Shown here one piece after another: positions 2,222 through 35,087 of a stretch of DNA of 35,087 bases. The stretch lies in UHGV virus genome UHGV-0145327; one strand, written 5' to 3'. Below the pieces are notes generated by a model, which saw only the letters and a program-made list of their open reading frames with translations, had not been told where the DNA came from and did not search any database. This DNA is from a virus. The position numbers and the translations under genes were made by a program. The number at the start of each line of letters is the position of its first letter. Positions within the stretch are counted from its first letter, which is position 1.

Positions 2222-2611
2222 GTGAAGCAATTTCTTACCGCTATGTTCTTATTCATATCTTTTGGGGCTACAGCAGAGTGCTGGGTCGTTGGAGATATGC
2301 GCGGAATAAGCTATTCAGAACGAAATAATTTCCATCCGGAAGAAGATGGTTTTAGTGGAACATTCATCATTAAGACAAACGGTGAAGATGCCAGCATCAC
2401 ATATTCTGGGACAGATGCGGGCGGCATGGCTTACAAAGCATTGTCTAAAAACTCCATCATAGGAATCGGCGCGAATGGCGAAACTCAACGCGTTATCGAC
2501 TCATGGGTAATACATCCTACTGGAACAGTTTTAATGTCAAAAACCATTTCCGGTTATGGAAATATGGATTCAACCAAAGCTTTTGTTGGAAAAGTAAAAA
2601 GAAAATGTTAG
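2222..2611 (+). CDS. Hypothetical secreted or periplasmic protein (about 129 aa) with an N-terminal signal peptide
   Basis: AGGAGG at 2211-2216 followed by in-frame GTG at 2222. Hydrophobic N-terminus VKQFLTAMFLFISFGATAEC; mature part has Cys near both ends. Plus-strand gene sitting inside a minus-strand late region. Confidence 0.6.
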   Translation: MKQFLTAMFLFISFGATAECWVVGDMRGISYSERNNFHPEEDGFSGTFIIKTNGEDASITYSGTDAGGMAYKALSKNSIIGIGANGETQRVIDSWVIHPTGTVLMSKTISGYGNMDSTKAFVGKVKRKC

Positions 2612-2635
2612 CGATTGAATCCAATTTCCCATACG

Positions 2636-4477
2636 TTACTGCTGTGTTGCCTCAGTAGCAAACAGCGGTCTGATGGCATTCGCAGCGTTATTTATCGCTC
2701 TTTCATAGGCTGGTGTTCCTGCTTTGGTGTTTGCCAAACGAAGAAGCATATTCCTTGCTGCTTTGGACTCATACAAGCGCATCATTGCACCAAAACCAGC
2801 CTCAAGCCCCATTGATACGCCAAGGGTCGCAGTTGCGCCAATCGTCCTTATCCTGTTGGCTTGCGATTGCCCCGTCTGAGTTACTACATTTGCGGTGTCT
2901 GACCTTGCTGTTTGCTGTAGAACTTCATGAAGAGCATCAAGCTCTTTCATGTGCTTTCCAGAAAAAATAGTGTTGTAAATTTCACCGCCTGACTGAGATT
3001 TCAGCTTATTAACTTCAGTGATGAACTTGGCTGGAGAGTCACCGGCCTTTTCCGCTATTTTGCTGACATAAGCTGCACGCATAGCATCTTTCCCTTTATT
3101 ATCCAATGCGCTCCAGATTCGTTTTACGTCAGATGGTTTTCTGCTTAATACAACGGTATTTATAAGTTCAGGACTGGCTTCACTGCTTGCCTTGTTGAGC
3201 TTGTTGGCAATGTTTTTATTAAGCACCTTATTATAAACGTTTGCATAATCGGAATTTGCTTTAAGGTATTTTGCTGCGTCTGATGCACCGAGGTTTTTAG
3301 CAACTGCGTTACGAAGGTCTTTTGACATTGCATTCTCTACCATATTGGTAGCTGCTTTTGCCTGGTTGGGGAAGACCATAGCATCTCCCTGAACATTAGA
3401 TCTAAATGCTGTTCTGTGCTGACGCAAGAGATCAAACGTAACATCCAAATCAGTTGCAGGGTTTGCTAATTCTTCACGTAGGTTACGCAAGGATGTAAGC
3501 AGGCTTTGATTGGCAGACGTCCCAAGCCGTTCCTGTCTTGCGATCGCTGTATTCAGAGCATTCATGGTATTTGTGGTATCAACTGCGGCATTACCCATTT
3601 TATTGGTGACGTCATTGATAACAGCGCCAGCGGCATCCTTCCGCCCCCTTAACGTGGTGGTAAGAGATTTCACCACATCATCAGGGTTGTACTCACCAAA
3701 CCGGTCAAAATAATTACTTACCAGCTTACTACGCGTTGCATATTGCTCCGCTCGCTTTGAGCCTGTCCCGAGCAAAGCCCCCTCGGCATCCTGAGTTAGG
3801 CCGCGAGTGAAAGCATTTTTCGGCGGGATAACATCAGATGTCATTGGTGTCACACCCATCGATTCTGATGTGGCAATTTTCTTCGCCACTTCTGGCGCAA
3901 TATCACCTTTTATAGCCGTTATTCCACGCCCTATTCCCTTTGCTGCTGCGGAAAGAACACCCTGAGCGGCAAGGTTAACTCCGGCATTTTTAGCTGCATT
4001 TTGTGCGAAATCGCCTTTCTGATTTGCGGCCTCTGCCAGTGATCCAATAGCCATGCTTCCTGCCGTTCCAACTCCTGGAACTAAATACCCACCAATTGTT
4101 TCACCGGCTTGCGCGTAGGGGTCTGTCGGTCTGTCTACTGGACGATAAACATCATCCAAAACCTTGGGTCCACCAAGCCCCTGACTGATTGCATTAATCA
4201 GACTTGCGCCGCCCTGCAATACGTCAAATGGTATGTTTACCAGACCACGACCAGCCTGTTCTGCAATTTGCCCTGCACTTTGACCACCAGTGAGCCAATC
4301 GCCAGCTTGTTGCATCAATGATGGTTCTTCACGTGCTGGTTCATTGCTATCCTGGCTGACAGTTTGTTGCTGAACAGACTGTCCAGCAAAATACTCATCA
4401 ATGGCAGATCCAATATCTTCCGTGCTCGTACCATCAGGGAAGGTAAATGTCTTACCGTTTGCAGTTACTTTCATCAT
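2636..4477 (-). CDS. Internal virion ejection protein, P22 gp16-like (613 aa)
   Basis: Size and position (last gene of the late operon, after the gp20-like gene) match the P22 order 7-20-16; Gly/Ala-rich sequence typical of ejection proteins. Confidence 0.8.
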
Positions 4478-6584: not shown

Positions 6585-7040
6585 CTATCTCCCGTGATTC
6601 AGGAATTCGATTAGTTCTTCGCGTGTGGCGCTGTAAAACGTCACGTCATCCACGCCTTTGAAGTATTTCTTGATGGTTCCTACACGATTAAGGCCAATCA
6701 TTGCGCAATACATCTGACCGTGGCGGAATTTGCGTGCTGCGAACGATGTGACGCACTGAACGGTGGTGTTAGTCAGAATGTATCTCCAGAAAGACAGCCC
6801 GATTTCCTTGCTGAAGCCGCGAATCTCTGGCAGGTACATGGCGTGGCAATCAAAGGTCAGCGGCTGAATCTCCTGATAGTAAACAATTCCGCCGAACTGC
6901 CCGTGCACGTTCACCTCAAAGTAACGGCATTCAGGTTTGTAGTCATATCCATCACCGTTGTTGCTCCCGGCAATAATGTCAGGGTGATTTCCGACTGCTT
7001 CTATCAGGTCGATGTTTCGCGTTGGTTTGAATGTAATCAT
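6585..7040 (-). CDS. P22 gp14-like virion assembly protein (151 aa)
   Basis: Position between the tail needle and the gp7-like gene, as in P22-like genomes. Called from synteny only. Confidence 0.6.
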   Translation of the reverse strand: MITFKPTRNIDLIEAVGNHPDIIAGSNNGDGYDYKPECRYFEVNVHGQFGGIVYYQEIQPLTFDCHAMYLPEIRGFSKEIGLSFWRYILTNTTVQCVTSFAARKFRHGQMYCAMIGLNRVGTIKKYFKGVDDVTFYSATREELIEFLNHGR

Positions 7041-7741
7041 CAGTCAATCAGCCCATGTAATCTAAGTGCCGTTTCAAGCGCCAGAATACGCTGCCGCGCC
7101 TGCTGCAAACCTGTAGCGAGAGCTGCGACTTCGGATTGCGTGTACGTAGTGCCGACAGTGTATGACTGGTTAGCGTTGAATGAGCCAAGAAGTGGCGTAC
7201 CTGTGGCTGCAGTCCATCCGGTCTGCCTTGCTCCAACGACCTGAATTCCATCAACTGAATATGATGTTTTTACATCCAGCGGTGACGCAAGAGACTGCGA
7301 TTCGGTTACGGTTTTCGATACGTAATCACTCTTAATGTCAGATACATCGCTTTCTACGCCATCCAGTCTTTGGTCAACAGTGACCAGATGCGCCTGAATA
7401 TCGATAACCTCATCCAGCAAGTAATCAACATCGCTACGTAGTACGACTATCTTCCCTTCGGCGGTTGTTAACCTGACCTCAAGGAGATTTATCGCTTTTG
7501 TGTTTGCGGTGATTCTTGCATCGTGATCTGCCAGCTCGACGTCCTGTTCATCGTTTTTCACCTGAGCATCGTAAGCGCCCTGACCAGCCTGATTTGCCTT
7601 CCCGGCAATTGCGCCAACATCAGCACCCTGATTTATGACATACAGCAGGTAAGACTGGCTGAATATATTGCGTGGCAAAATTGAAGCATCAAGGCGCGCA
7701 GCCTGAACCGCGACAGGATTATTCAGTGATGAATCCGCCAT
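7040..7741 (-). CDS. Tail needle protein, P22 gp26-like (233 aa)
   Basis: N-terminus [77 protein letters not shown] and C-terminus ...[12 protein letters not shown] closely match P22 gp26 as recalled; same length. Confidence 0.9.
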
Positions 7742-20706: not shown

Positions 20707-21305
20707 GCGGCCTCACTTCTGCTGTTTCGCAGGTCTTTGAGTTTCTGCTGATACTCCGCCTTGATGGCCCTGCACTCTTCGACAGTCCAGCGATGGCGGT
20801 TATGGTTTGATTCGATTTCGTCTACTGCTTCCTGCCCGATGCGGCTAATCAGTTCGACGCGATACGGAACGAGATTCCCGCTTTTGTGCTGGTTGCACAC
20901 CACGCATTGCTTGTGAATATTGCGTTCATCAAATCGGAGTTGAGGCGCCGCAGCAGTTGTCCGGTAATGCCCGGCATCCCACTGAGCAGACGTGAGCGTT
21001 CCGCACGAGATACATGGTAAGTCGCGGTCTCTTTCTCTGATGAAGGCGTTTACAGCTTGTTGGGCTTGTTTAATCCAGTAACTGCGGGGCTTTAAGGCGA
21101 GTTTTCGAATCTTAAGTTTATCTTTCTGTTTCTGCTCCTCTCGTCGTCGTTTCTTCTCTGCTGCCTTTTCCGCTTTTTCGCGTTCTTTGCTTCGTCGTTC
21201 GAGTGCTATCTTGGTTCCACAAATCTCATTACACCAATATTGATTTTGATATTTTGGTATAAACCATTCATTGCAACATTTACATTTCCTTCGATAGATT
21301 CGCAT
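20703..21305 (-). CDS. ninG: NinG/Rap recombination protein, restarted at an internal Met (about 200 aa)
   Basis: ...[81 protein letters not shown]... matches lambda NinG as recalled; ATG at 21305 ([15 protein letters not shown]). Confidence 0.85.
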
Positions 21306-21846
21306 AAGTGCTCCTTTCGTTGCCGGAAAAATCACCGTAATACTTATCTCGGGCTTCTTCAGCAACTAGTACCGCTAACTCCAGATCATCAAAGCATCCG
21401 AAGTGTTTACTCTTGCCATGGAAACCTAGCCTAACATTCCATTTTTTCTGTCGTTTGTGCCAAGTAACTCCTCTGCAACCTGATTTGCTATTCTTTCGGA
21501 TCCTTATATTTCTTGAATTTTCTATTGGCAGGCATTCTCTTAAATTTTCTGGCCTATTGTCGGTCCTAATTCCATTAACGTGGTCAATTTGACCAGCAGG
21601 CCAACGATTATGAGTTATGTAAAAAACTAAGACGTGAGTTTTATATCTACGCCCATCTATCATGATCATTGAATAACCGTTGGAATCAAAAGTTCCAGCA
21701 ACACTATTTAATGCTATCCTTCCCTGAGTGGGAACTTTCCATCTAAATACCCCGGTAGATTTATCGAAACTTAGTAACTCAAATATCCTTTTAACAGTTA
21801 AATCTTCTCTTTTACGGTTACATCGTCTTCGCGCTGGTTTAGCCAT
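21280..21846 (-). CDS. HNH homing-type endonuclease with an AP2-like DNA-binding domain (188 aa)
   Basis: HNH core [15 protein letters not shown]; N-terminal ...[17 protein letters not shown]...; AP2-like ...[50 protein letters not shown]. Gene is visibly AT-rich against GC-richer flanks. Confidence 0.8.
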
Positions 21847-26780: not shown

Positions 26781-27488
26781 ATGAAAACATTCGCAGAAAG
26801 ACTAAATGCAGCCATGAGCTCAGCAGGGGTATCACAATCACAGCTTGCTGACATGGTTGGAATATCTCAGCCAGCCATACAGAAGATGTCGTCCGGTAAA
26901 ACAAACGGATCTCGCAAGATGGTTGAATTAGCCAATGCTTTAAAAGTGCGCCCTGAATGGCTTAGTTCTGGTATTGGTGAAATGAGGGATGGTGCACATG
27001 AAGAACCATCCAATGTCCGTGAGTCATCTTTAAAAGCTGTGGTATGGGAAGACATTAAAAGAAACGATGACGAGTTTGTTGCGTTGCCTCTTCTTAACGT
27101 TTCGCTTTCAGCTGGAAGCGGTAGCTGCGAGCTAGAGGAATCATCGGAGTTCTCTTTGGTTTTCAGAAAGCACTATCTGAAAAAGATGGGAGTATCTGAA
27201 AGATCAGCCAAGCTAGTTAGGGTTGTAGGGCAAAGCATGGAACCAACGCTTCACGATGGCGATGTTGTTGGTGTTAACACGCAAGATACCACCATCAGAG
27301 ATGGTAAAACCTACGCTATTTGCCAGTCTGATTTGTTACGAGTAAAAACATTAATCGCCACCCCTACATCGGTGATAATCAGATCAATAAATCGCGAAGA
27401 GTACCCGGATGAAGTAATGGATAGAGATGAATTTCATGAAACCGTAAGGATTATTGGCAGAGTATTCTGGTCGTCTCATAGTTGGTAA
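26781..27488 (+). CDS. cI: CI-type prophage repressor with HTH and LexA-like S24 autocleavage domain (235 aa from MKTFAERL)
   Basis: HTH QSQLADMVGISQPAIQKM; C-terminal S24 motifs (VVGQSMEPTLHDGDVV Ser, downstream Lys). ATG 26751 is an alternative start but would overlap the third operator. Confidence 0.85.
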   Translation: MKTFAERLNAAMSSAGVSQSQLADMVGISQPAIQKMSSGKTNGSRKMVELANALKVRPEWLSSGIGEMRDGAHEEPSNVRESSLKAVVWEDIKRNDDEFVALPLLNVSLSAGSGSCELEESSEFSLVFRKHYLKKMGVSERSAKLVRVVGQSMEPTLHDGDVVGVNTQDTTIRDGKTYAICQSDLLRVKTLIATPTSVIIRSINREEYPDEVMDRDEFHETVRIIGRVFWSSHSW

Positions 27489-27528: not shown

Positions 27529-27825
27529 ATGGAATTTCTGATAGTTTTTGTTGTTGTTTTGGTCATCATTCTTTTTGTTTTGCTAAGCATTAGTAAAAAG
27601 CTATCTCAAGTGATTGAACATAGCTCTAATCGCGCAAAAGAAGAAGAGCATCTAATTGATATAAAAGAGATTCTCTCTGATATAAAAATCACATTAGATG
27701 AAATAAAATACACAACAGATCTAATTGAACAGTATAAAATACCAACCCCAAACGAGAGAAAAGCAATAGATCAATATCGTATTGACTTAGAAATCGACGA
27801 AATGCTAAGCAAAAGAAAAGACTAA
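27529..27825 (+). CDS. Small membrane-anchored hypothetical protein (98 aa) in the rexAB position, very AT-rich
   Basis: Directly downstream of cI on the same strand; N-terminal hydrophobic segment MEFLIVFVVVLVIILFVLLSI followed by a charged, helix-prone region; followed by an intrinsic terminator. Confidence 0.6.
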   Translation: MEFLIVFVVVLVIILFVLLSISKKLSQVIEHSSNRAKEEEHLIDIKEILSDIKITLDEIKYTTDLIEQYKIPTPNERKAIDQYRIDLEIDEMLSKRKD

Positions 27826-27830
27826 AAACA

Positions 27831-27858
27831 CCCGGCCTCAGCGCCGGGTTTTCTTTTC
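27831..27858 (+). terminator. Intrinsic terminator ending the cI/rex-slot operon
   Basis: CCCGGC-ctcagc-GCCGGG followed by TTTTCTTTTCC, 5 bp after the stop codon. Confidence 0.65.
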
Positions 27859-27978
27859 CTGCCGTTCACCACCCAATCACCCATCATCATCATAGACAAG
27901 CATCAAGCCAAAGGTAACACCTTCACCCCGCACGCAAGCCCTCAAACACCAATCAATCAGCAACATTTACAAAAATAA

Positions 27979-28064
27979 AATACCTTTGTTATCCATCACT
28001 TATAACTTATTTACCACAAAATATAAATTAGGTTATTGACCACACCTATAACCTAAGTTATCTT
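27979..28064. promoter_or_regulatory. OL/PL region: operator-like sites of the same ATAAC-N4-GTTAT family and a candidate PL (-35 TTGACC at 28036-28041)
   Basis: ATAACctaaGTTAT at 28048-28061 is a full site; ATACCtttgTTAT near 27980-27992 is a degenerate copy; TTGACC with TATCTT 17 bp downstream, pointing toward N. Confidence 0.5.
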
Positions 28065-28110
28065 TAAGCCATCAGCAGGGCGCTGGTAGCCAAACGGAAC
28101 AGATTGGCAG

Positions 28111-28151
28111 GCTCTTTAACATTGATGGGATTGTCCCGCCGAAATGCGGGA
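28111..28151 (+). promoter_or_regulatory. nutL: boxA (GCTCTTTAA) and boxB hairpin (TCCCGC-cgaaat-GCGGGA) upstream of N
   Basis: boxA at 28111-28119; boxB at 28134-28151 has the identical sequence to the boxB found in nutR. Confidence 0.6.
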
Positions 28152-28258
28152 ACCAAAGAGTAGTTGGCTTTGGGGTGGCGTGAAGTGCAGCTGCACGACG
28201 GCAACCGGAAGATAAGCACCCGGCGCGTCACCGCCAAAGTCAATCATCGGAGGTCAAC

Positions 28259-28531
28259 ATGACAGTAGTCATTACATATCTGGCTGACGATAACGCCAGA
28301 AATCGCCGCAGAGCACGCAGACAGGCTCAACGTGAACAGGCAATGCAAGAGCAGCGACTGGCGCGAAAAATTGCGCTAAAGCTCTCTGGTTGCGTCAGAG
28401 CAGATAAAGCAGCATCACTCGGAAGCCTTCGCTGCAAGAAGGCAGATGAATGCAGTGGAAGTATTTGCCTGCCAAACGTAGCCATTTACGCGGCAGGCTA
28501 CCGGAAATCAAAACAACTGACGGCGAGATGA
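28259..28531 (+). CDS. N: N-type transcription antiterminator (90 aa; P22 gp24-like)
   Basis: Arginine-rich motif DNARNRRRARRQAQREQ near the N-terminus; C-terminal LPNVAIYAAGYRKSKQLTAR matches the P22 gp24 C-terminus (LPGVALYAAGHRKSKQITAR) as recalled. Confidence 0.85.
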   Translation: MTVVITYLADDNARNRRRARRQAQREQAMQEQRLARKIALKLSGCVRADKAASLGSLRCKKADECSGSICLPNVAIYAAGYRKSKQLTAR

Positions 28532-28547
28532 TAAATTAATTTGCTAA

Positions 28548-29129
28548 TTACTTGTTTTTGCCATGCTTATACTGAGCGATAAGTTCATCCATAAGACTGT
28601 CTTTCTTCCCAGCAAACCTAATGTAGCACTCATTTCTATAGCGTTCCGGGATAACAAAACGGTCGATTTCAGGATATCCAGTAGCAGAAGGTACCCGAAT
28701 AAGAAGCCCTTTTTCGAGCAATGAGATTGCTTCAGGGCTTCCCTTTTCTGTCTTTAGCTGGTTATTAGCGGCTACAGCGAATGCCAAATACGCTCTTTCT
28801 CCAAGAGTTAACGAATCAAACAAATCTTGCACGTATTTCTCTTCTTTAGATTTGCGCTTCTGAGCAGCGAATATCTCAATTCTTTCAGTCACAGCGTGAT
28901 AAGCGGAATTAACAACGCCGTTAAGCACATAGCTAACGCAAAACAACAGGATGTAATACATCCAGTAATGAGGAAGGATTTCTGGATTATGCAGGTTTAT
29001 CCATTCTTTTACGCTTACAGGCATAACAATAATCAATATGATTAGGATGATTAGCATATGAATCAACTGTTTAAGTGTCATTCCTTGCAGGAAAAAATGC
29101 ATTAGTTCCTGCCACCATGAGTTGTTCAT
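28548..29129 (-). CDS. sieB: Superinfection exclusion protein SieB-like membrane protein (193 aa)
   Basis: Lies next to N on the opposite strand as sieB does in lambda; similar size (about 192 aa); N-terminal transmembrane segments (LIHMLIILIILIIVMPV, YWMYYILLFCVSYVL). Confidence 0.75.
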   Translation of the reverse strand: MNNSWWQELMHFFLQGMTLKQLIHMLIILIILIIVMPVSVKEWINLHNPEILPHYWMYYILLFCVSYVLNGVVNSAYHAVTERIEIFAAQKRKSKEEKYVQDLFDSLTLGERAYLAFAVAANNQLKTEKGSPEAISLLEKGLLIRVPSATGYPEIDRFVIPERYRNECYIRFAGKKDSLMDELIAQYKHGKNK

Positions 29130-29343
29130 CGGCGTTTCTCTTTTGCTCTCTGTAGGGGTGAATAGAGTTTATCCGATTTCTCGCTGTAGGGGTACACGAG
29201 AACCACCGAGCCTGATGTGGTTAAAAGACAGGCATACTAATAAACACTGCACTGTGTATTCATTCCAACGAGTGAATACACTGAGCAATGTCGCTCGTAA
29301 CTAAACAGGAGCCGACTTGTTCTGATTATTGGAAATCTTCTTT

Positions 29344-29369
29344 GCCCTCCAGTGTGAGGGCATTTTTTT
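29344..29369 (+). terminator. Intrinsic terminator in the PL operon (tL-like)
   Basis: GCCCTC-cagtgt-GAGGGC followed by ATTTTTTT. Confidence 0.6.
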
Positions 29370-29381
29370 GACGGAGAAAAT

Positions 29382-29693
29382 ATGAAATTACGTGTCTGGC
29401 ATATCCCGCAAGTACCTATGAAGCCGTTCATTGTAGAAGTGGCAAGTGTTGAAGAGGGTGTTCGCCTGATGGATGCACTGGCTGATTATGATGCCTTTCA
29501 GTATGACAACAATATCAAGCCTGACTACTGCAATGCTAACGGCCTTGAGATGTGGGATGAGAGCCTTATCGATGAAGATTTATCAGATATGGGGCTTACT
29601 GATCGCTGGGTGGATTGGTACAGCGAATGCCAATGTTACGACGACCCACGTAAATATCTCGAAAGCCTGAAAGAAGAAACATCAGCCGCCTAA
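29382..29693 (+). CDS. Hypothetical acidic protein (103 aa), first gene after sieB in the PL operon
   Basis: GGAGAAAAT-ATG start; Cys-containing acidic protein. Position corresponds to P22 gene 17 / lambda ral region, but I cannot confirm the family from sequence. Confidence 0.55.
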   Translation: MKLRVWHIPQVPMKPFIVEVASVEEGVRLMDALADYDAFQYDNNIKPDYCNANGLEMWDESLIDEDLSDMGLTDRWVDWYSECQCYDDPRKYLESLKEETSAA

Positions 29694-29768
29694 GCGCGGC
29701 TTTACCGCATACCAATAACGCTTCACTCGAGGCGTTTTCGTTATGCAATCAAACAGAAGGAGAATCCT

Positions 29769-29939
29769 ATGCAACAGTTCGCTATTGCAGGGGCGGCATC
29801 GGTTCGCCCTTTCAACCCGATTTTATCGGTACAGCATTCACGAAAAAATATTTTAACCGGAGCAGACTTTAAACAACCAAGAATGAAAAGTTTGCTCGAA
29901 AAGCTTTGGGATATTTTGAAACAACAAGGCCGTCCATGA
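29769..29939 (+). CDS. cIII: CIII-like FtsH inhibitor (56 aa), not in the ORF track
   Basis: My translation MQQFAIAGAASVRPFNPILSVQHSRKNILTGADFKQPRMKSLLEKLWDILKQQGRP resembles lambda CIII (MQYAIAG...SLLERITRKLRDGWKRLIDILNQPG); AAGGAG Shine-Dalgarno 7 nt upstream. Confidence 0.75.
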   Translation: MQQFAIAGAASVRPFNPILSVQHSRKNILTGADFKQPRMKSLLEKLWDILKQQGRP

Positions 29940-30020
29940 GTTTTACAGATAACTGGTCAGACGAAGAATTCATTCGTCAGATGAAAGAAATGCTCAATCA
30001 GCACAAAGAACAGGAGAAAG

Positions 30021-30332
30021 ATGATGATTCTGACTCTGAAAGATGAGCGTGAAATATCGCAAATAATCGCAAGTTTTACTGATGAAGATTACGAACGAAT
30101 CAACAGTGAAGTTGATCGCCTCTGCAAACGTTGCGACCCAATAAGCGAAATGCTTCGCTCATATAAACCAGATGAACACACTAAGGACGCTATCGACTGG
30201 CTGGAAGATTATGACTGTAACTATCAGGAAAAAGCCGCTGAATGGTTCTGGGATGCAATAACCGAAAGAGTTAAGGCTGAATATGCCTTCGCAATATTCA
30301 AACGCAGACACGTTTATGGAGAAGCAGCATGA
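30021..30332 (+). CDS. Hypothetical protein (103 aa)
   Basis: ORF translationally coupled to recT (stop overlaps the recT ATG); no family recognised. Confidence 0.5.
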   Translation: MMILTLKDEREISQIIASFTDEDYERINSEVDRLCKRCDPISEMLRSYKPDEHTKDAIDWLEDYDCNYQEKAAEWFWDAITERVKAEYAFAIFKRRHVYGEAA

Positions 30333-31240
30333 GCAATATCGTTGAATTCGTTAAACAGCAAGAGCAGTTATTCTGCGGAGCATTGACTGAACAGACGGTG
30401 ACATGGGCTAAGGAAAGCCAGTTTGCAATTCAGTATTTCCAGAAAAATGATTACCTGGCTAAAACAGCACTGGCAAATCCAACCAGCGCACAGAACGCCA
30501 TCATCAATGTTGCGGCGATCGGTATCACCTTAAACCCGGCTAGCAAACTGGCTTATCTGGTTCCGCGCGACGGCATGGTGTGCCTTGATATCAGTTATAT
30601 GGGATTGCTCCATATTGCAATGGAGTCTGGTGTTATCTCATGGGGTCAGGCAAAACTTGTTCATGCTAACGATACCTATGAGTCAAACGGGCTTGATAAA
30701 GCACCAACCCATAAATACAACGCCTTCGGTGATCGTGGTGATATTGTTGGCGTTTACTGCACAGTTAAGACGCCAGCAGGTGATTATCTAACGGAAGAGA
30801 TGAGTCTGGCTGAAATTGAAGCTGTAAGGAAAACAAGCAAGGCAGCATTCAGCGATAAAGGACCATGGGTAAATCACTGGAATGAGATGGCGCGAAAGAC
30901 GGTCGTAAAGCGTGCAAGCAAGTATTGGCCTAAGGCATCACGTCTTGATAGTGCTATTCACGTACTAAACGAAGAAGAAGGTGTGTGGACTGAACCAGTT
31001 ATGCCGCACAAATCAGAGGAAGATATCCGCGAAGATGAACGGAAACGACAGCAGGAAATTATGGAAAAAGCACAACTTCTTTGTGATGAAATGGCTCAGG
31101 CTGAAAACATGGATGATTTGAAGCGATATTTTGCAGAAGCATATCGCCTGACATCTGGAATGAAATTGCAGCAGAACGTACAAGCCATTTACATAGAATG
31201 CAAAGCGAAACTGGAGGTTGCCAGTGAGCAAACTGTATGA
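30329..31240 (+). CDS. recT: RecT-family single-strand annealing recombinase (303 aa)
   Basis: ...VRKTSKAAFSDKGPWVNHWNEMARKTVVKRASKYWP... aligns with the RecT signature region (...GPWVTHWEEMAKKTAIRRLFKYLP...). Confidence 0.85.
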   Translation: MSNIVEFVKQQEQLFCGALTEQTVTWAKESQFAIQYFQKNDYLAKTALANPTSAQNAIINVAAIGITLNPASKLAYLVPRDGMVCLDISYMGLLHIAMESGVISWGQAKLVHANDTYESNGLDKAPTHKYNAFGDRGDIVGVYCTVKTPAGDYLTEEMSLAEIEAVRKTSKAAFSDKGPWVNHWNEMARKTVVKRASKYWPKASRLDSAIHVLNEEEGVWTEPVMPHKSEEDIREDERKRQQEIMEKAQLLCDEMAQAENMDDLKRYFAEAYRLTSGMKLQQNVQAIYIECKAKLEVASEQTV

Positions 31241-31706
31241 AATTGCCAATGAATACGCAAAATTGATGGATTCAGATTTAGAGCCAGAGATGATTGCTGA
31301 CACAATAGAAGGCATGGAAGGAGAATTTACCGATAAAATAGAGCAACTTCTCGCCATTATTAAAAATGAATCTGGTTATGCTGAACGCCTCAAGGAAGAG
31401 GCAAAGTCACTAAATGAGAGAGCCGCAGTAATTCAAAATAAGATTGACAGCATTATGGCGTATATAGCGTCATCGCTTGAAATGGTTGGCAAGAAAAAGA
31501 TTCGAGCAGGTATTCACCAGGTAACAATTCGCAAACCGTCAGAAATTGTAGAAATAATCGACTCAAGCGCCCTTCCTCCTGAATACGTTGAGTTTGAAAC
31601 GACAATTAAAGCCGACAAACTGGCAATCAAACACCAACTAAAAGCAGGAATAAATATCCCCGGCGCTCAACTCAAAGTTGGGAAACCTTCACTTCTTATC
31701 AAATAA
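31224..31706 (+). CDS. Hypothetical protein immediately after recT (about 160 aa; possibly a Gp157-like recT-associated protein)
   Basis: GGAGG at 31213-31217 then GTG at 31224; coiled-coil-like sequence; family assignment is a guess from gene context. Confidence 0.5.
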   Translation: MSKLYEIANEYAKLMDSDLEPEMIADTIEGMEGEFTDKIEQLLAIIKNESGYAERLKEEAKSLNERAAVIQNKIDSIMAYIASSLEMVGKKKIRAGIHQVTIRKPSEIVEIIDSSALPPEYVEFETTIKADKLAIKHQLKAGINIPGAQLKVGKPSLLIK

Positions 31707-31717
31707 CGGTATCGCCT

Positions 31718-32032
31718 ATGAAAAAGACTCCATGGGAGAAATGGGAAGTCGATTTCTTGCGCGAAGTGGCGGCGACAATGCCAGTTGAAGTTATCGCTGA
31801 AAAACTGGAAAGGACTGAAAAAGCAGTAATGGCGAAAGCAACAAGGATTGGCGCTGACATTGTTAGCCGACTTCGTGGAAGACGATGGACAAGAGCCGAA
31901 GTATCACTTTTCGGTAAGTTCTCCGCAGAAGAAATAGCAATTGCAACCTGCCGCTCAATTTATTCAGTAAGGGCTATGCGATACAAGCTAAAAAAACTCG
32001 ATGAAGAAAGAGCAGGCATACGAATAAATTAA
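31718..32032 (+). CDS. Hypothetical protein (104 aa)
   Basis: Complete ORF in the co-oriented early-left gene array; basic, possibly DNA-binding. Confidence 0.5.
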   Translation: MKKTPWEKWEVDFLREVAATMPVEVIAEKLERTEKAVMAKATRIGADIVSRLRGRRWTRAEVSLFGKFSAEEIAIATCRSIYSVRAMRYKLKKLDEERAGIRIN

Positions 32033-32048
32033 CATGGAGTAATTAACA

Positions 32049-32330
32049 ATGAAGCTAAACATCGACCTCGGCAAATACGTTATTACTGGAACAAAACACG
32101 ACCTGATTCTTAATGAAAGAGGAATTATCAAAGAAGGTGAGAATGCAGGGAAAGAAACACTAAGCCGTATCGGTTATTACAGCAAGTTTGAGCATCTGGT
32201 TAAAGAATTATGCAACCGTGAAATCCTGTTATCTCAGGCGCAGACGCTACAGGATATTCAGCAGCATATCGAAACTTTAGGTATGTCACTTAGCATGGCT
32301 ATTGACCAGTTCGTGGAGAGTAAATCATGA
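32049..32330 (+). CDS. Hypothetical protein (93 aa)
   Basis: Complete ORF in the co-oriented early-left gene array. Confidence 0.5.
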
Positions 32331-32487
32331 GAGGTCTTGCATACAATCCCGGCATTCTTCCGGCAGAAATGATTATTCGCCAACGCGTAAAGCCAATGCC
32401 ATCGAGAGAGGAATTGCTTAAGAGAAATTCTTTTCCATCAGTGAATCAAAACAAATATCTGAATGCGATGTGGCGGGGTGGGAAGAA

Positions 32488-33117
32488 ATGAAACAAATGT
32501 CACTAATTGAGATGGATGGATTTCTGAAAGGTAAATGCATCCCACGAGATTTAAAGGTTAACGAAACAAACGCTGAATATCTGGTGCGTAAGTTCGGTGA
32601 AGCGGAGGCCAAGATTTCGGCTCTGTCCGAAGACCAGCAGAGAGCGATTGAGTCAATTAAGCAGGCTGATGCGGCTGTTAAGTTGGCACACGAGAAGTTT
32701 TCGGCGCTGGCGGCGGAGAATGAACTGGCTCGTAAGGCAGTTCAGGCATTCTGCGATGTTGTTGGCGACAACACCGAGGTTATCGCTGAGGTGGTTGGGA
32801 GAGATGGCGTTCTGGTTATTTTGGAGGCCATGAAGGCAACAGGAAATATGCCTGCCACCGATGCTTTCCTGTCTGAAATACGTGCGGAGGCACGCAACGA
32901 GGGGATTAACTACACCGCAAGCCGCCTTGCTGCTGCGTTCAATCACGGATTTATCAATAAGTCTTTACGTGAAGTTTTCGACGTTACACGCATGATTCTG
33001 TCAGCGAAAGAAGAGTTGGCTAATGAACCGCATCCGATTGATGGCCTGTCTGGTGAATATGCGGAGAAATCCCTTGAAGAATGGGCGGAACAGATTCGCA
33101 AAGGAGTTCAGTCATGA
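32488..33117 (+). CDS. Hypothetical protein (about 209 aa from [11 protein letters not shown])
   Basis: ATG at 32488 overlaps the stop of an upstream small ORF (ATGA); the 32470 start in the track is less likely. Confidence 0.5.
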
Positions 33118-33347
33118 GCATCCGAACTGAACATGGATTTGGTCCTTCAACGGTCGAAGTCGAATGGCTTGATGATTGCCCTAAGTGCCAGCACGGCAAA
33201 GCCAAGGTAACAGGATGGTCGGTAACCAAAGATTCTTTGTGGGCGGGTGATGAGGCCGTTTGTTCCAAATGCGGTCACAAAGGTGAAATCGATGCTGATG
33301 GAGAGAATGCCTGGGTGGAATGGGACGAAATCGAGGAGGCGCAATGA
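33114..33347 (+). CDS. Small zinc-ribbon-like protein (77 aa)
   Basis: Two Cys pairs (CPKC ... CSKC); ATGA start overlap with the upstream gene. Confidence 0.55.
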   Translation: MSIRTEHGFGPSTVEVEWLDDCPKCQHGKAKVTGWSVTKDSLWAGDEAVCSKCGHKGEIDADGENAWVEWDEIEEAQ

Positions 33348-34009
33348 GCAACATCGACATCGACACACTGGCGCTGCGTGAGGCGGCAGAACGTGCAATT
33401 CCGGCAATGGAACGCCTGTTAATGTTGCCAGTTGATGATGATCTGATAAGTGAACAGGAACTTAAAGATTACGGTGTGGATATTGATGCGCTCAACGCCT
33501 TCAAATTTCTGGCCGGACCAGAAACCGTGCTGGCGCTTCTGGATGAACGGGAAAGAAACCAGCAATACATAAAACGCCGCGATCAGGAGAACGAGGATAT
33601 TGCGCTAACGGTAGGGAAACTGCTAATCGAAAACGGCCGGCTTGTTGCCGATACGCTACGCCACTTAGCTGATAACGAAATCGACTCTGATTATTTTGCT
33701 ATCACCTCAACGAATGAGAACGGTACTGAAATTGATCATGAGATGGCTATTACCGATTACGCACTGCAAGCTGCCGGAACTGTAGACGAATTGGTTGCGG
33801 CGCTGGAATCCGCAGAGAAGCGCATAGCAGAACTGGAAGCGCGGGAAATACTGCTCCCGGAACGTAGCAGTATGCTTCATCGAACAGATTTTCACGATGA
33901 TTACCAAACGGTAATGGCATACAAAGTTTCTGAAGTCATCGCTGCAATCCGCGCCGCTGGCATTCGCATCAAAGGAGGCGCAGGAGAACAAAACGATGAA
34001 AAACCGTAA
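33344..34009 (+). CDS. Ead/Ea22-like early-region protein (221 aa)
   Basis: N-terminus MSNIDIDTLALREAAERA resembles the conserved N-terminus of Ead/Ea22-like phage proteins (..ALREAAEKA..); ATGA overlap with the upstream gene. Confidence 0.6.
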   Translation: MSNIDIDTLALREAAERAIPAMERLLMLPVDDDLISEQELKDYGVDIDALNAFKFLAGPETVLALLDERERNQQYIKRRDQENEDIALTVGKLLIENGRLVADTLRHLADNEIDSDYFAITSTNENGTEIDHEMAITDYALQAAGTVDELVAALESAEKRIAELEAREILLPERSSMLHRTDFHDDYQTVMAYKVSEVIAAIRAAGIRIKGGAGEQNDEKP

Positions 34010-34189
34010 AGCAAAATTACTTCTTTTATCGCGTTCGACGGGGTACGAGAAGCTACCAATCAGCAATCACAAACGGGCGGTGATCGGCATGTTTGGTAGG
34101 GTGGTATTCGCATTTAACTATAAACCCACCGCGTCGCGGAACAGACGAGAGAAGGGGTACGCAGTGCGATGAAAAACCGTAAGGCAAAG
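33993..34189. repeat. Two copies of a roughly 21-bp direct repeat CGATGAAAAACCGTAARGCAAA, 174 bp apart, each starting a short ORF beginning MKNRKAK
   Basis: Copy 1 at 33993-34015 spans the 3' end of the Ead-like gene; copy 2 at 34167-34189. Confidence 0.5.
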
Positions 34190-34361
34190 ATGCTGATAGC
34201 AAAGCCGGGGCAGCGTATCCGTATCTCAAATCGGCTTGTTATTTACTATAGATATCTGGGTTTTAGGGGGTGTTCCTCTATTCGTTTTTACGGTGTCTGG
34301 CGAAACAGAAGCGCAGCACAAAACCGCTGGAAAAACCACTTTCGCACTAAAGGAGAGTGAT

Positions 34362-35087
34362 ATGACCACTATAACCGATAAGAAACAGTATCCAGGCGAG
34401 CAATATCTTAATGAGCTGATCACCAACATAGAGTTTGCTGCAAGGGCACCAGTTGAAGTCGTGAGAGCAATGGCAGCAGAGCTACAGAAGCGGCGCGAAG
34501 CTGATAGTGCCGAACCTGCAAGTAATCATGAAGAGTTGCCACTTGATTATCTCCAAGGTCAAAAAGATGGTCTTGAATGGGCTGCGCAGCTTGCAGAAGC
34601 AAATCACCCACAAACTGGCGACTGGCTTTACGATGACCCGCTGGAGCTGGCTAAAGCTATCAGAAAAGGTCCTGACATGCCCGAATTCGATGGACCAACT
34701 CCGATAACGCCGGAGGCCATTGAAAACGCAATTGAATATATCCGCAGTATCGCTTTTCACATCGATGAAGACGATTACCACGGCAAGCATATTGCGTATT
34801 TCATGCGACAAGCACTGGTCTGGCTGGAAGGGCATTCATGCAGCGACGACAGACAGGGTAAAGCCGAGAATCAACCAGTACGCGGCAACCAGGCTGCCGA
34901 ATCCAATCGCGGTAATGAGTGGACCGGCAATCCTGATATTGATAACGCCATCATCATGCTCGATCGCATAGATACGCTGGAAAGTTGCGATGATGACCGT
35001 ATTGAGGCGGTTAAGACTGTTTTGCGTAGACTGGCTGGCAACTATCCGGTAACTCCGGATGGTTGGATAAGCTGTAGTGAGCGAATG
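34362..35087 (+). CDS. Hypothetical early-region protein, 5' portion (gene continues past the right edge of the window)
   Basis: AAAGGAGAG Shine-Dalgarno then ATG at 34362; open reading frame (MTTITDKKQYPGEQYLNELITNIEFAARAPVEVVRAMAAELQKRREADSAEP...) runs to the window end without a stop, so it is absent from the ORF track. Confidence 0.55.
   Translation, partial: MTTITDKKQYPGEQYLNELITNIEFAARAPVEVVRAMAAELQKRREADSAEPASNHEELPLDYLQGQKDGLEWAAQLAEANHPQTGDWLYDDPLELAKAIRKGPDMPEFDGPTPITPEAIENAIEYIRSIAFHIDEDDYHGKHIAYFMRQALVWLEGHSCSDDRQGKAENQPVRGNQAAESNRGNEWTGNPDIDNAIIMLDRIDTLESCDDDRIEAVKTVLRRLAGNYPVTPDGWISCSERM

Follow-up and report, generated by a model that had tools for sequence, protein, structure and literature searches.

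A RecT–Gp157 recombination module with no phage exonuclease in a P22-like Escherichia coli prophage, and a RecT tail that travels with Gp157

An analysis of 325 lambdoid phages has shown that recombination (Rec) modules without a nuclease are common, accounting for 84 of 246 lambdoid modules, with P22 and HK620 as the classic cases (Zheng, Casjens, Davidson, Amundsen and Smith, Genome Res 2025; PMC12315714). In that study, 46 phages make up a P22 functional class having an anti-RecBCD function and an annealase only, and phage HK140 is listed as SAP-4 + MuGam, without a nuclease and without SSB; a "shuffling of partner interaction domains" was left unanalyzed. In Firmicutes phages, Gp157 or Mu-Gam-like genes have been described beside erf-ssb and sak4 modules (Steczkiewicz et al., 2021; PMC8093625). 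The subject of the present analysis is a recT–gp157 gene pair in the UHGV virus genome UHGV-0145327, a stretch of 35,087 nucleotides referred to below as the window, to whose full length all coordinates apply unless another genome is named.

The window is a P22-like/lambdoid E. coli prophage, the early-left operon of which runs on the + strand from about 27.5 kb. The module and the parts of RecT discussed here are as follows.

30021-30332, + strand: orf103, an acidic, helical protein of 103 amino acids (phrog_3486)
30329-31240, + strand: recT, 303 amino acids (PF03837, phrog_148)
30329-30988, + strand: RecT annealase core, about amino acids 1-220 (PF03837 at amino acids 31-217)
RecT amino acids 221-243: charged linker preceding the C-terminal tail
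31058-31240, + strand: RecT C-terminal tail, about amino acids 244-303, the proposed portable Gp157-associated domain
31224-31706, + strand: Gp157-family gene, 160 amino acids from a GTG at 31224 (PF05565, phrog_253)
31718-32032, + strand: orf104, a basic protein of 104 amino acids (phrog_323), after which ea-type genes follow

The closest described relative is the HK140 module, which has the same block, orf103-recT-gp157-orf104 (97.7% nucleotide identity over 89% of a 3.1-kb query), and the same composition, namely an annealase and Gp157/"MuGam" with no nuclease; as a module, it differs from that of the window in essentially nothing. The phages around the two modules do differ, HK140 being HK97-like, whereas the virion genes of the window prophage are P22-like, which illustrates module shuffling. 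The contiguous early-left cluster has the composition of the lambdoid class with an anti-RecBCD function, an annealase, and no nuclease, the anti-RecBCD activity being assumed for Gp157. With a probability of roughly 0.7, the locus is an HK140-type Rec module of this P22-like class, consisting of the RecT annealase and Gp157 without a phage exonuclease and working by the mechanism proposed below. The module itself is of a known, ordinary, and already cataloged kind; the new part is the RecT tail traveling with Gp157. A preliminary description of this DNA had regarded a recT gene without an exonuclease as unusual, a view not borne out, given the frequency of nuclease-less modules noted above and the cataloging of the same pair for HK140. 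The impression of an anomaly stems from a lambda/Rac-centered expectation, and it is too narrow to assume that RecT "normally" requires an exonuclease next to it.

In P22, the genes arf-erf-abc1-abc2 occupy the same early-left position, after gene 17, c3, and kil, and likewise provide an annealase, an anti-RecBCD function, and a small protein matching phrog_323 without a phage exonuclease (PMC12315714). However, the annealase is Erf in P22 and RecT in the window, and no sequence similarity to P22 Arf or Abc2 was found in the window. Furthermore, Abc2 binds RecC and modifies RecBCD, whereas the Gp157 protein of the window is presumed to bind DNA ends; thus, resection through a modified RecBCD, as in P22, cannot be assumed here. 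The lambda Red (Exo-Bet-Gam) and Rac RecET modules resemble the window in having an annealase of the RecT/Red-beta superfamily with a C-terminal extension and a RecBCD countermeasure within the module. They differ in that the window contains neither Exo nor RecE, and that lambda Gam is a DNA mimic unrelated to Gp157. In addition, the RecT tail is unrelated to the Exo-binding C-terminal domain of Red-beta (Bet, about residues 193-261), with which it gave no alignment. The erf-ssb and sak4 modules of Firmicutes phages have the same Gp157 family beside an annealase and no exonuclease, but Gp157 lies upstream of the annealase there and downstream in the window, and the annealases belong to other families, with SSB usually present (PMC8093625). 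No RecT-type tail was detected in Clostridia loci with Gp157 beside Sak4-type annealases, Firmicutes annealases not having been searched specifically.

The 303-amino-acid protein is securely assigned to the RecT family from its sequence, matching PF03837 over amino acids 31-217 with 111.9 bits (cutoff 24; E-value (E) 3.8e-32) and phrog_148 with an E of 4.9e-92, and is predicted to have annealing activity. The downstream protein matches PF05565 with 125.7 bits (cutoff 28.6; E 2.3e-36) over profile positions 1-162 of 162, as well as phrog_253 ("Mu Gam-like end protection"; E 2.8e-53). The program-made open reading frame (ORF) of this gene spans 31218-31706, with 162 amino acids from a TTG, and the family alignment indicates the GTG at 31224 as the likely start, giving 160 amino acids. 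In the public annotation of phage Gally, the gene (6632-7072) was begun at an internal ATG, yielding 146 amino acids, whereas the family alignment supports 160. The orf103 stop and recT start overlap as ATGA at 30329-30332, and recT and gp157 overlap by 17 nucleotides; because of these overlaps, the three genes are read as a single, probably translationally coupled unit.

The block is 97-98% identical in the isolated phages HK140, mEpX1, Gally, Kapi1, and others, and is present in 206 complete E. coli genomes (coverage at least 80%). A Gp157 relative is encoded on 397 IMG/VR stretches. In 80 IMG/VR loci, which were fetched with Gp157 and cover at most 3 kb on each side, RecT, Gp157, and orf104 occur together in all 80; these loci are near-identical, so that they provide counts rather than diversity. 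The recT-gp157 pair is conserved from Escherichia to Aeromonas, and Gp157 relatives in Proteobacteria, Bacteroidia, and Clostridia directly adjoin annealases of the RecT, Erf, Rad52/Sak-like, and Sak4 (AAA_24) types. A word-indexed search returned 193 Gp157 homologues, with PF05565 found in 120 of 120 among the matches listed, and an exhaustive profile search (E up to 1e-3) gave 12,869 clusters at 50% identity.

The most distinctive feature of the locus is the last part of RecT. When the RecT core is compared with its nearest homologues from other phages, matching ends at about amino acids 218-233, and the tail, when searched alone, retrieved only 24 phage records. The residues conserved in the tail are L, M, LK, F, A, T, LQ, VQ, Y, and K. 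The tail-bearing loci come from Escherichia, Pantoea, Klebsiella, Pseudomonas phage 15b, and two Aeromonas phages, with a Gp157 protein of 160 amino acids. In every tail-bearing locus examined, Gp157 lies directly downstream, an HNH gene intervening in Pantoea phage PdC23. Conversely, in a scan of one genome per species, every Gp157 protein of at least 60% identity with a readable upstream region was preceded by the RecT core with the tail, the exceptions being one insertion sequence (IS) insertion and one contig end. The same tail was also found on other annealase cores. In PdC23, it is carried by an Erf core, with Gp157 downstream past the inserted HNH gene (3647-4111). A diverged version ends a Rad52-like protein of Pseudomonas prophages (tail hidden Markov model (HMM), E 1e-5 to 2e-3; hhalign, E 6.6e-5 and probability 64%), and these tailed Rad52-like genes lie directly upstream of a 33-36%-identical Gp157 in five Pseudomonas prophage loci from four genomes, where the tail is weakly detectable.

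Two controls have similar cores and different partners. The annealase of Shigella phage Ss-VASD has a RecT core with 66% identity to that of the window and ends in a homologue of lambda Red-beta's C-terminal domain (E 1e-23); the nuclease that comes next has 88% identity to lambda Exo. In a Vibrio phage, a RecT core of 75% identity carries a third kind of tail, and a RecE-like nuclease follows it. A search of the tail profile against the PDB, including 6M9K, gave nothing significant, the best E of 0.013 coming from sub-threshold repeats.

Across 19 distinct RecT-type loci, the core is conserved (mean pairwise distance 0.17), and the divergence of Gp157 is correlated far better with that of the tail (r 0.71) than with that of the core (r 0.31). 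With the core held constant, tail and Gp157 have a partial correlation of 0.69 (Mantel p 2e-4); with the tail held constant, the value for core and Gp157 is -0.22. This pattern suggests that the last ~60 residues of RecT may be a portable Gp157-docking domain, and the co-variation would fit such a tail as a case of the "shuffling of partner interaction domains" (PMC12315714).

The HNH endonuclease gene of Candidatus Erwinia dacicola (3037-3504) lies exactly between the annealase gene and gp157, as in PdC23. In Pseudenterobacter timonensis (2238-3442), two overlapping ORFs that appear IS-transposase-like on reading of their sequence stand in the place of recT, directly ahead of a gp157 gene that is otherwise intact.

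As to Gp157 itself, the AlphaFold2 (AF2) model (predicted local distance difference test score (pLDDT) 79.5) consists of a helix of 68 residues (21-88) and, after it, a small beta domain, and the label "coiled-coil" used in the preliminary description is a fair one for this model. The charge is split between the two halves, the N-terminal helical half being acidic (isoelectric point (pI) 4.3) and the C-terminal beta domain basic (pI 9.9). This basic domain, with the acidic helix, is the sole indirect hint at end binding or at a block of RecBCD, and Gp157 can reasonably be presumed to be a DNA-end-binding, anti-RecBCD protein. The comparison with Mu Gam, a Ku-like double-strand-end binder, is of interest in this respect. 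The two proteins are of similar length (174 amino acids for Mu Gam, 160 for Gp157), and they show a weak, collinear profile similarity in the C-terminal half. Against PF07352 (Mu Gam), Gp157 scored 18.2 bits, below the cutoff of 28.3 (E 0.0025, collinear over 118 of 149 positions). With hhalign, narrow Gp157 profiles gave no significant match to Mu Gam, and a broad profile of 144 diverse Gp157 representatives gave a weak one (E 3.4e-4, probability 38%) over 74 collinear columns in the C-terminal domain. These comparisons give weak support to homology with Mu Gam, which is less secure than the name "Mu Gam-like" implies. The families are separate in both Pfam and PHROGs (Mu Gam, phrog_491; window Gp157, phrog_253), and Mu Gam, unlike Gp157, has no paired annealase. 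A sequence search of Gp157 against PDB chains returned nothing.

In the proposed mechanism, Gp157 would dimerize via its long acidic helix and bind double-strand ends via its basic C-terminal domain, and, as with Mu Gam, the end-bound protein would keep RecBCD off the phage DNA, whether injected or rolling-circle. RecT would anneal complementary single strands, and would thereby circularize terminally redundant DNA, form concatemers, and allow exchange with related prophages. These single strands would be supplied by host activities, through resection of the RecQ/RecJ type or gaps at replication forks, rather than by a dedicated phage nuclease. The RecT tail may serve as a portable adaptor through which the annealase docks on ends bound by Gp157, analogous to the docking of Red-beta's C-terminal domain on lambda Exo. 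This last part is put forward tentatively: that the tail is a docking domain swapped among RecT, Erf, and Rad52-like cores, with Gp157 as an end-bound loader replacing the exonuclease and resection left to the host, is given slightly less than an even chance.

The preliminary description had placed recT between a 103-amino-acid ORF and a coiled-coil ORF of about 160 amino acids, neither of them obviously a nuclease, and coordinates, protein features, and family scans all agree with this. It had proposed profile searches of both flanks against nuclease and Gp157-like families, in which no nuclease was found and the downstream ORF proved to belong to PF05565. In Pfam and PHROGs, neither flank of recT matched YqaJ, RecE, lambda Exo, or DnaQ-type families, and no PD-(D/E)XK nuclease was found in 30021-30332, 31218-31706, 31718-32032, or the other scanned pL-operon ORFs of 27529-34009; as a positive control, the gene after the Ss-VASD RecT homologue matched YqaJ (E 2.5e-28). 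A partner exonuclease might still lie outside the window, as had been suggested, or elsewhere in the prophage, since the window stops at 35087 before int/xis, leaving the distal early-left region of this prophage out of view. However, the complete HK140 genome, with the same block and 71 coding sequences, is without a 5'-3' exonuclease, and no exonuclease gene was found in the early-left operon of Gally read through int or in the closest E. coli prophages sharing the right end of the window, read out to the host junction. Serratia and Enterobacter prophages contain no lambda Exo-, YqaJ-, or RecE-like gene, and the 80 IMG/VR loci gave no match to a lambda Exo or RecE-like query. Within the window, the replication/nin region contains NinB, NinG, an HNH homing-type gene, Dam, and a phosphatase, and no 5'-3' exonuclease. 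A hidden partner of this kind is therefore very improbable. That Gp157 or orf103 is instead a cryptic nuclease of unrecognized fold, and the true resection partner of RecT, also seems improbable. Gp157 does sit in the YqaJ/Exo slot of sister modules and is tightly coupled to the annealase, and a Foldseek search of the Gp157 model against BFVD gave weak matches to actinophage PD-(D/E)XK/YqaJ-type exonucleases of 300-400 amino acids, the top one in Tsukamurella phage TIN4 (E 6.6e-3) and others with E of 0.6-1.5; this signal may reflect a Gp157-like extra domain in some exonucleases, or coiled-coil noise. On the other hand, neither protein matched a nuclease family in any library, the Gp157 model is a long helix with a small basic beta domain, and orf103 is an acidic, all-helical protein that many relatives do without. 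Furthermore, the residues conserved in the 144 diverse Gp157 members (L4, Y5, D26, T27, K38, E59, Y80, P118, K132, G142, and G147) include no recognizable catalytic motif, which argues against a cryptic nuclease.

A different objection concerns the link between RecT and Gp157. RecT might act alone, annealing at replication forks, with Gp157 as an unrelated anti-defense or anti-RecBCD neighbor and the co-variation of the tail as mere linkage. Annealases by themselves suffice for oligonucleotide recombination, as is known from recombineering. In addition, the evidence for contact is purely correlative, and the tail-coding DNA abuts gp157, so that mosaic exchange tends to move both together and such co-transfer could yield much of the tail–Gp157 signal. 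Nevertheless, the core/tail junction has been reused repeatedly, so that RecT, Erf, and Rad52-like cores bear the same tail, always with Gp157, and the pairing persists despite HNH insertions between annealase and gp157. [quoted passage not shown] On balance, an independent RecT is regarded as unlikely. Several points nonetheless weigh against the HK140-type module working as proposed. The co-variation could, as said, come from linkage and not from contact; a Gp157 protein that blocked every exonuclease at ends would leave the supply of single strands to RecT unaccounted for; and no experiments on any Gp157-family protein were found in the searchable literature. Finally, no Chi site (GCTGGTGG) occurs on either strand of the whole 35-kb window, an absence that agrees with the nuclease-less class and is uninformative by itself, not being significantly below the 0.88 expected from shuffled sequences.

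The preliminary description had also suggested that one of the small flanking proteins has an accessory role. For the downstream protein, a full-length member of the Gp157 family, this suggestion holds up; for the upstream one it does not, in that orf103 is facultative and narrowly distributed. The orf103 protein matches phrog_3486 (E 1.1e-57) and nothing in a Pfam search, has a pI of 4.7, and is all-alpha in its AF2 model (pLDDT 75). Only 27 clusters of homologues were found among 5.8 billion proteins. An Enterobacter prophage has a homologue (46% identity) upstream of recT, whereas orf103 is absent or replaced in Serratia (by an unrelated ORF), in HK639 and KO-TP1 (GamL in its place), and in several other species. 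Because other genes replace it in many relatives, orf103 is, by its distribution, a facultative accessory at most, and a role as a conserved partner is unsupported. It was also considered as an analogue of P22 Arf or HK639 GamL and showed no similarity to either.

On the other side of gp157, orf104 encodes a protein with a pI of 10 and a repeated helix-turn-helix-like motif. It comes after Gp157 in each of the 80 IMG/VR loci, as well as in several genera. The protein matches phrog_323 (E 2.8e-20), as well as phrog_11492, and the same phrog_323 is matched by P22 Abc1 (26970-27254; E 1.3e-23) and by Mu gp9 (1483-1782; E 5.2e-29), whose gene adjoins gam in Mu as orf104 adjoins gp157. Pairwise BLAST aligned orf104 with Mu gp9 (E 5e-5) and gave no alignment with Abc1, and orf104 and Abc1 align to different parts of the 319-position phrog_323 profile. 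An identification of orf104 as P22 Abc1, with the next ORF as Abc2, was tried and rejected, BLAST giving no alignment and the link between orf104 and Abc1 being the shared PHROG only. In the public annotation of Gally, the gene at 7084-7398 is called "Anti-RecBCD protein 1, similar to P22 Abc1", but BLAST finds no such similarity. A small basic protein of phrog_323 thus adjoins a presumed anti-RecBCD gene in three otherwise different systems, those of the window, P22, and Mu.

The remaining early-left features upstream of the module are the following.

28259-28531, + strand: N-like antiterminator of the early-left operon
28548-29129, opposite strand to the early-left operon: sieB
29382-29693, + strand: homologue of P22 gene 17
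29769-29939, + strand: cIII-like gene
29936-30046, + strand: orf36, a small acidic ORF of 36 amino acids, the start of which overlaps the stop of the cIII-like gene (ATGA)

Lying translationally coupled between the cIII-like gene and orf103, orf36 occupies the place of P22 kil and arf in the operon and was found in 71 of the 80 IMG/VR loci. It matches phrog_17766 and the first 21 residues of phrog_2123, the latter named "recombinase". Its similarity to the N-terminus of P22 Arf, the Erf cofactor, is limited to a 10-residue match around "SDEEFI" (E 0.012).

Further observations concern other genes of the window and more distant Gp157 loci. Two adjacent small ORFs on the + strand (33996-34172 and 34169-34360; 58 and 63 amino acids) both start with MKNRKAK, which suggests a local duplication. 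The nin region contains a gene with HNH_3 and AP2 domains (21280-21846, - strand). In Proteus, Escherichia whittamii, and Citrobacter prophages (L115:1510-3477, L123:1291-3504, and L124:1226-3501, respectively), proteins of phrog_2489 with 655-737 amino acids precede Gp157 relatives of 32-35% identity. The middle of these proteins is RecE-like, and the C-terminal third corresponds to the stand-alone 243-amino-acid Rad52-like protein (phrog_7838) of Pseudomonas prophages. Although phrog_2489 is named "exonuclease" in PHROGs, Pfam shows no nuclease domain in it; these may be the "RecE-2" proteins of the earlier study (PMC12315714).

Overall, the lack of RecE or YqaJ beside RecT is normal for lambdoid phages and should not lead annotators to flag the module as incomplete, and Gp157 proteins are among the commonest neighbors of phage annealases. 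If the docking of RecT on Gp157 is true, a very large uncharacterized phage family (~12,900 clusters at 50% identity) would gain its first function. The C-termini of annealases could then be used to predict their partners, providing a rule for partner specificity, and tail swaps could re-wire recombineering systems. Gabija is a defense system that senses end-binding proteins (PMC12407980), and end-binding partners such as Gp157 could, on the same condition, be examined as triggers or targets of defense systems of this kind.

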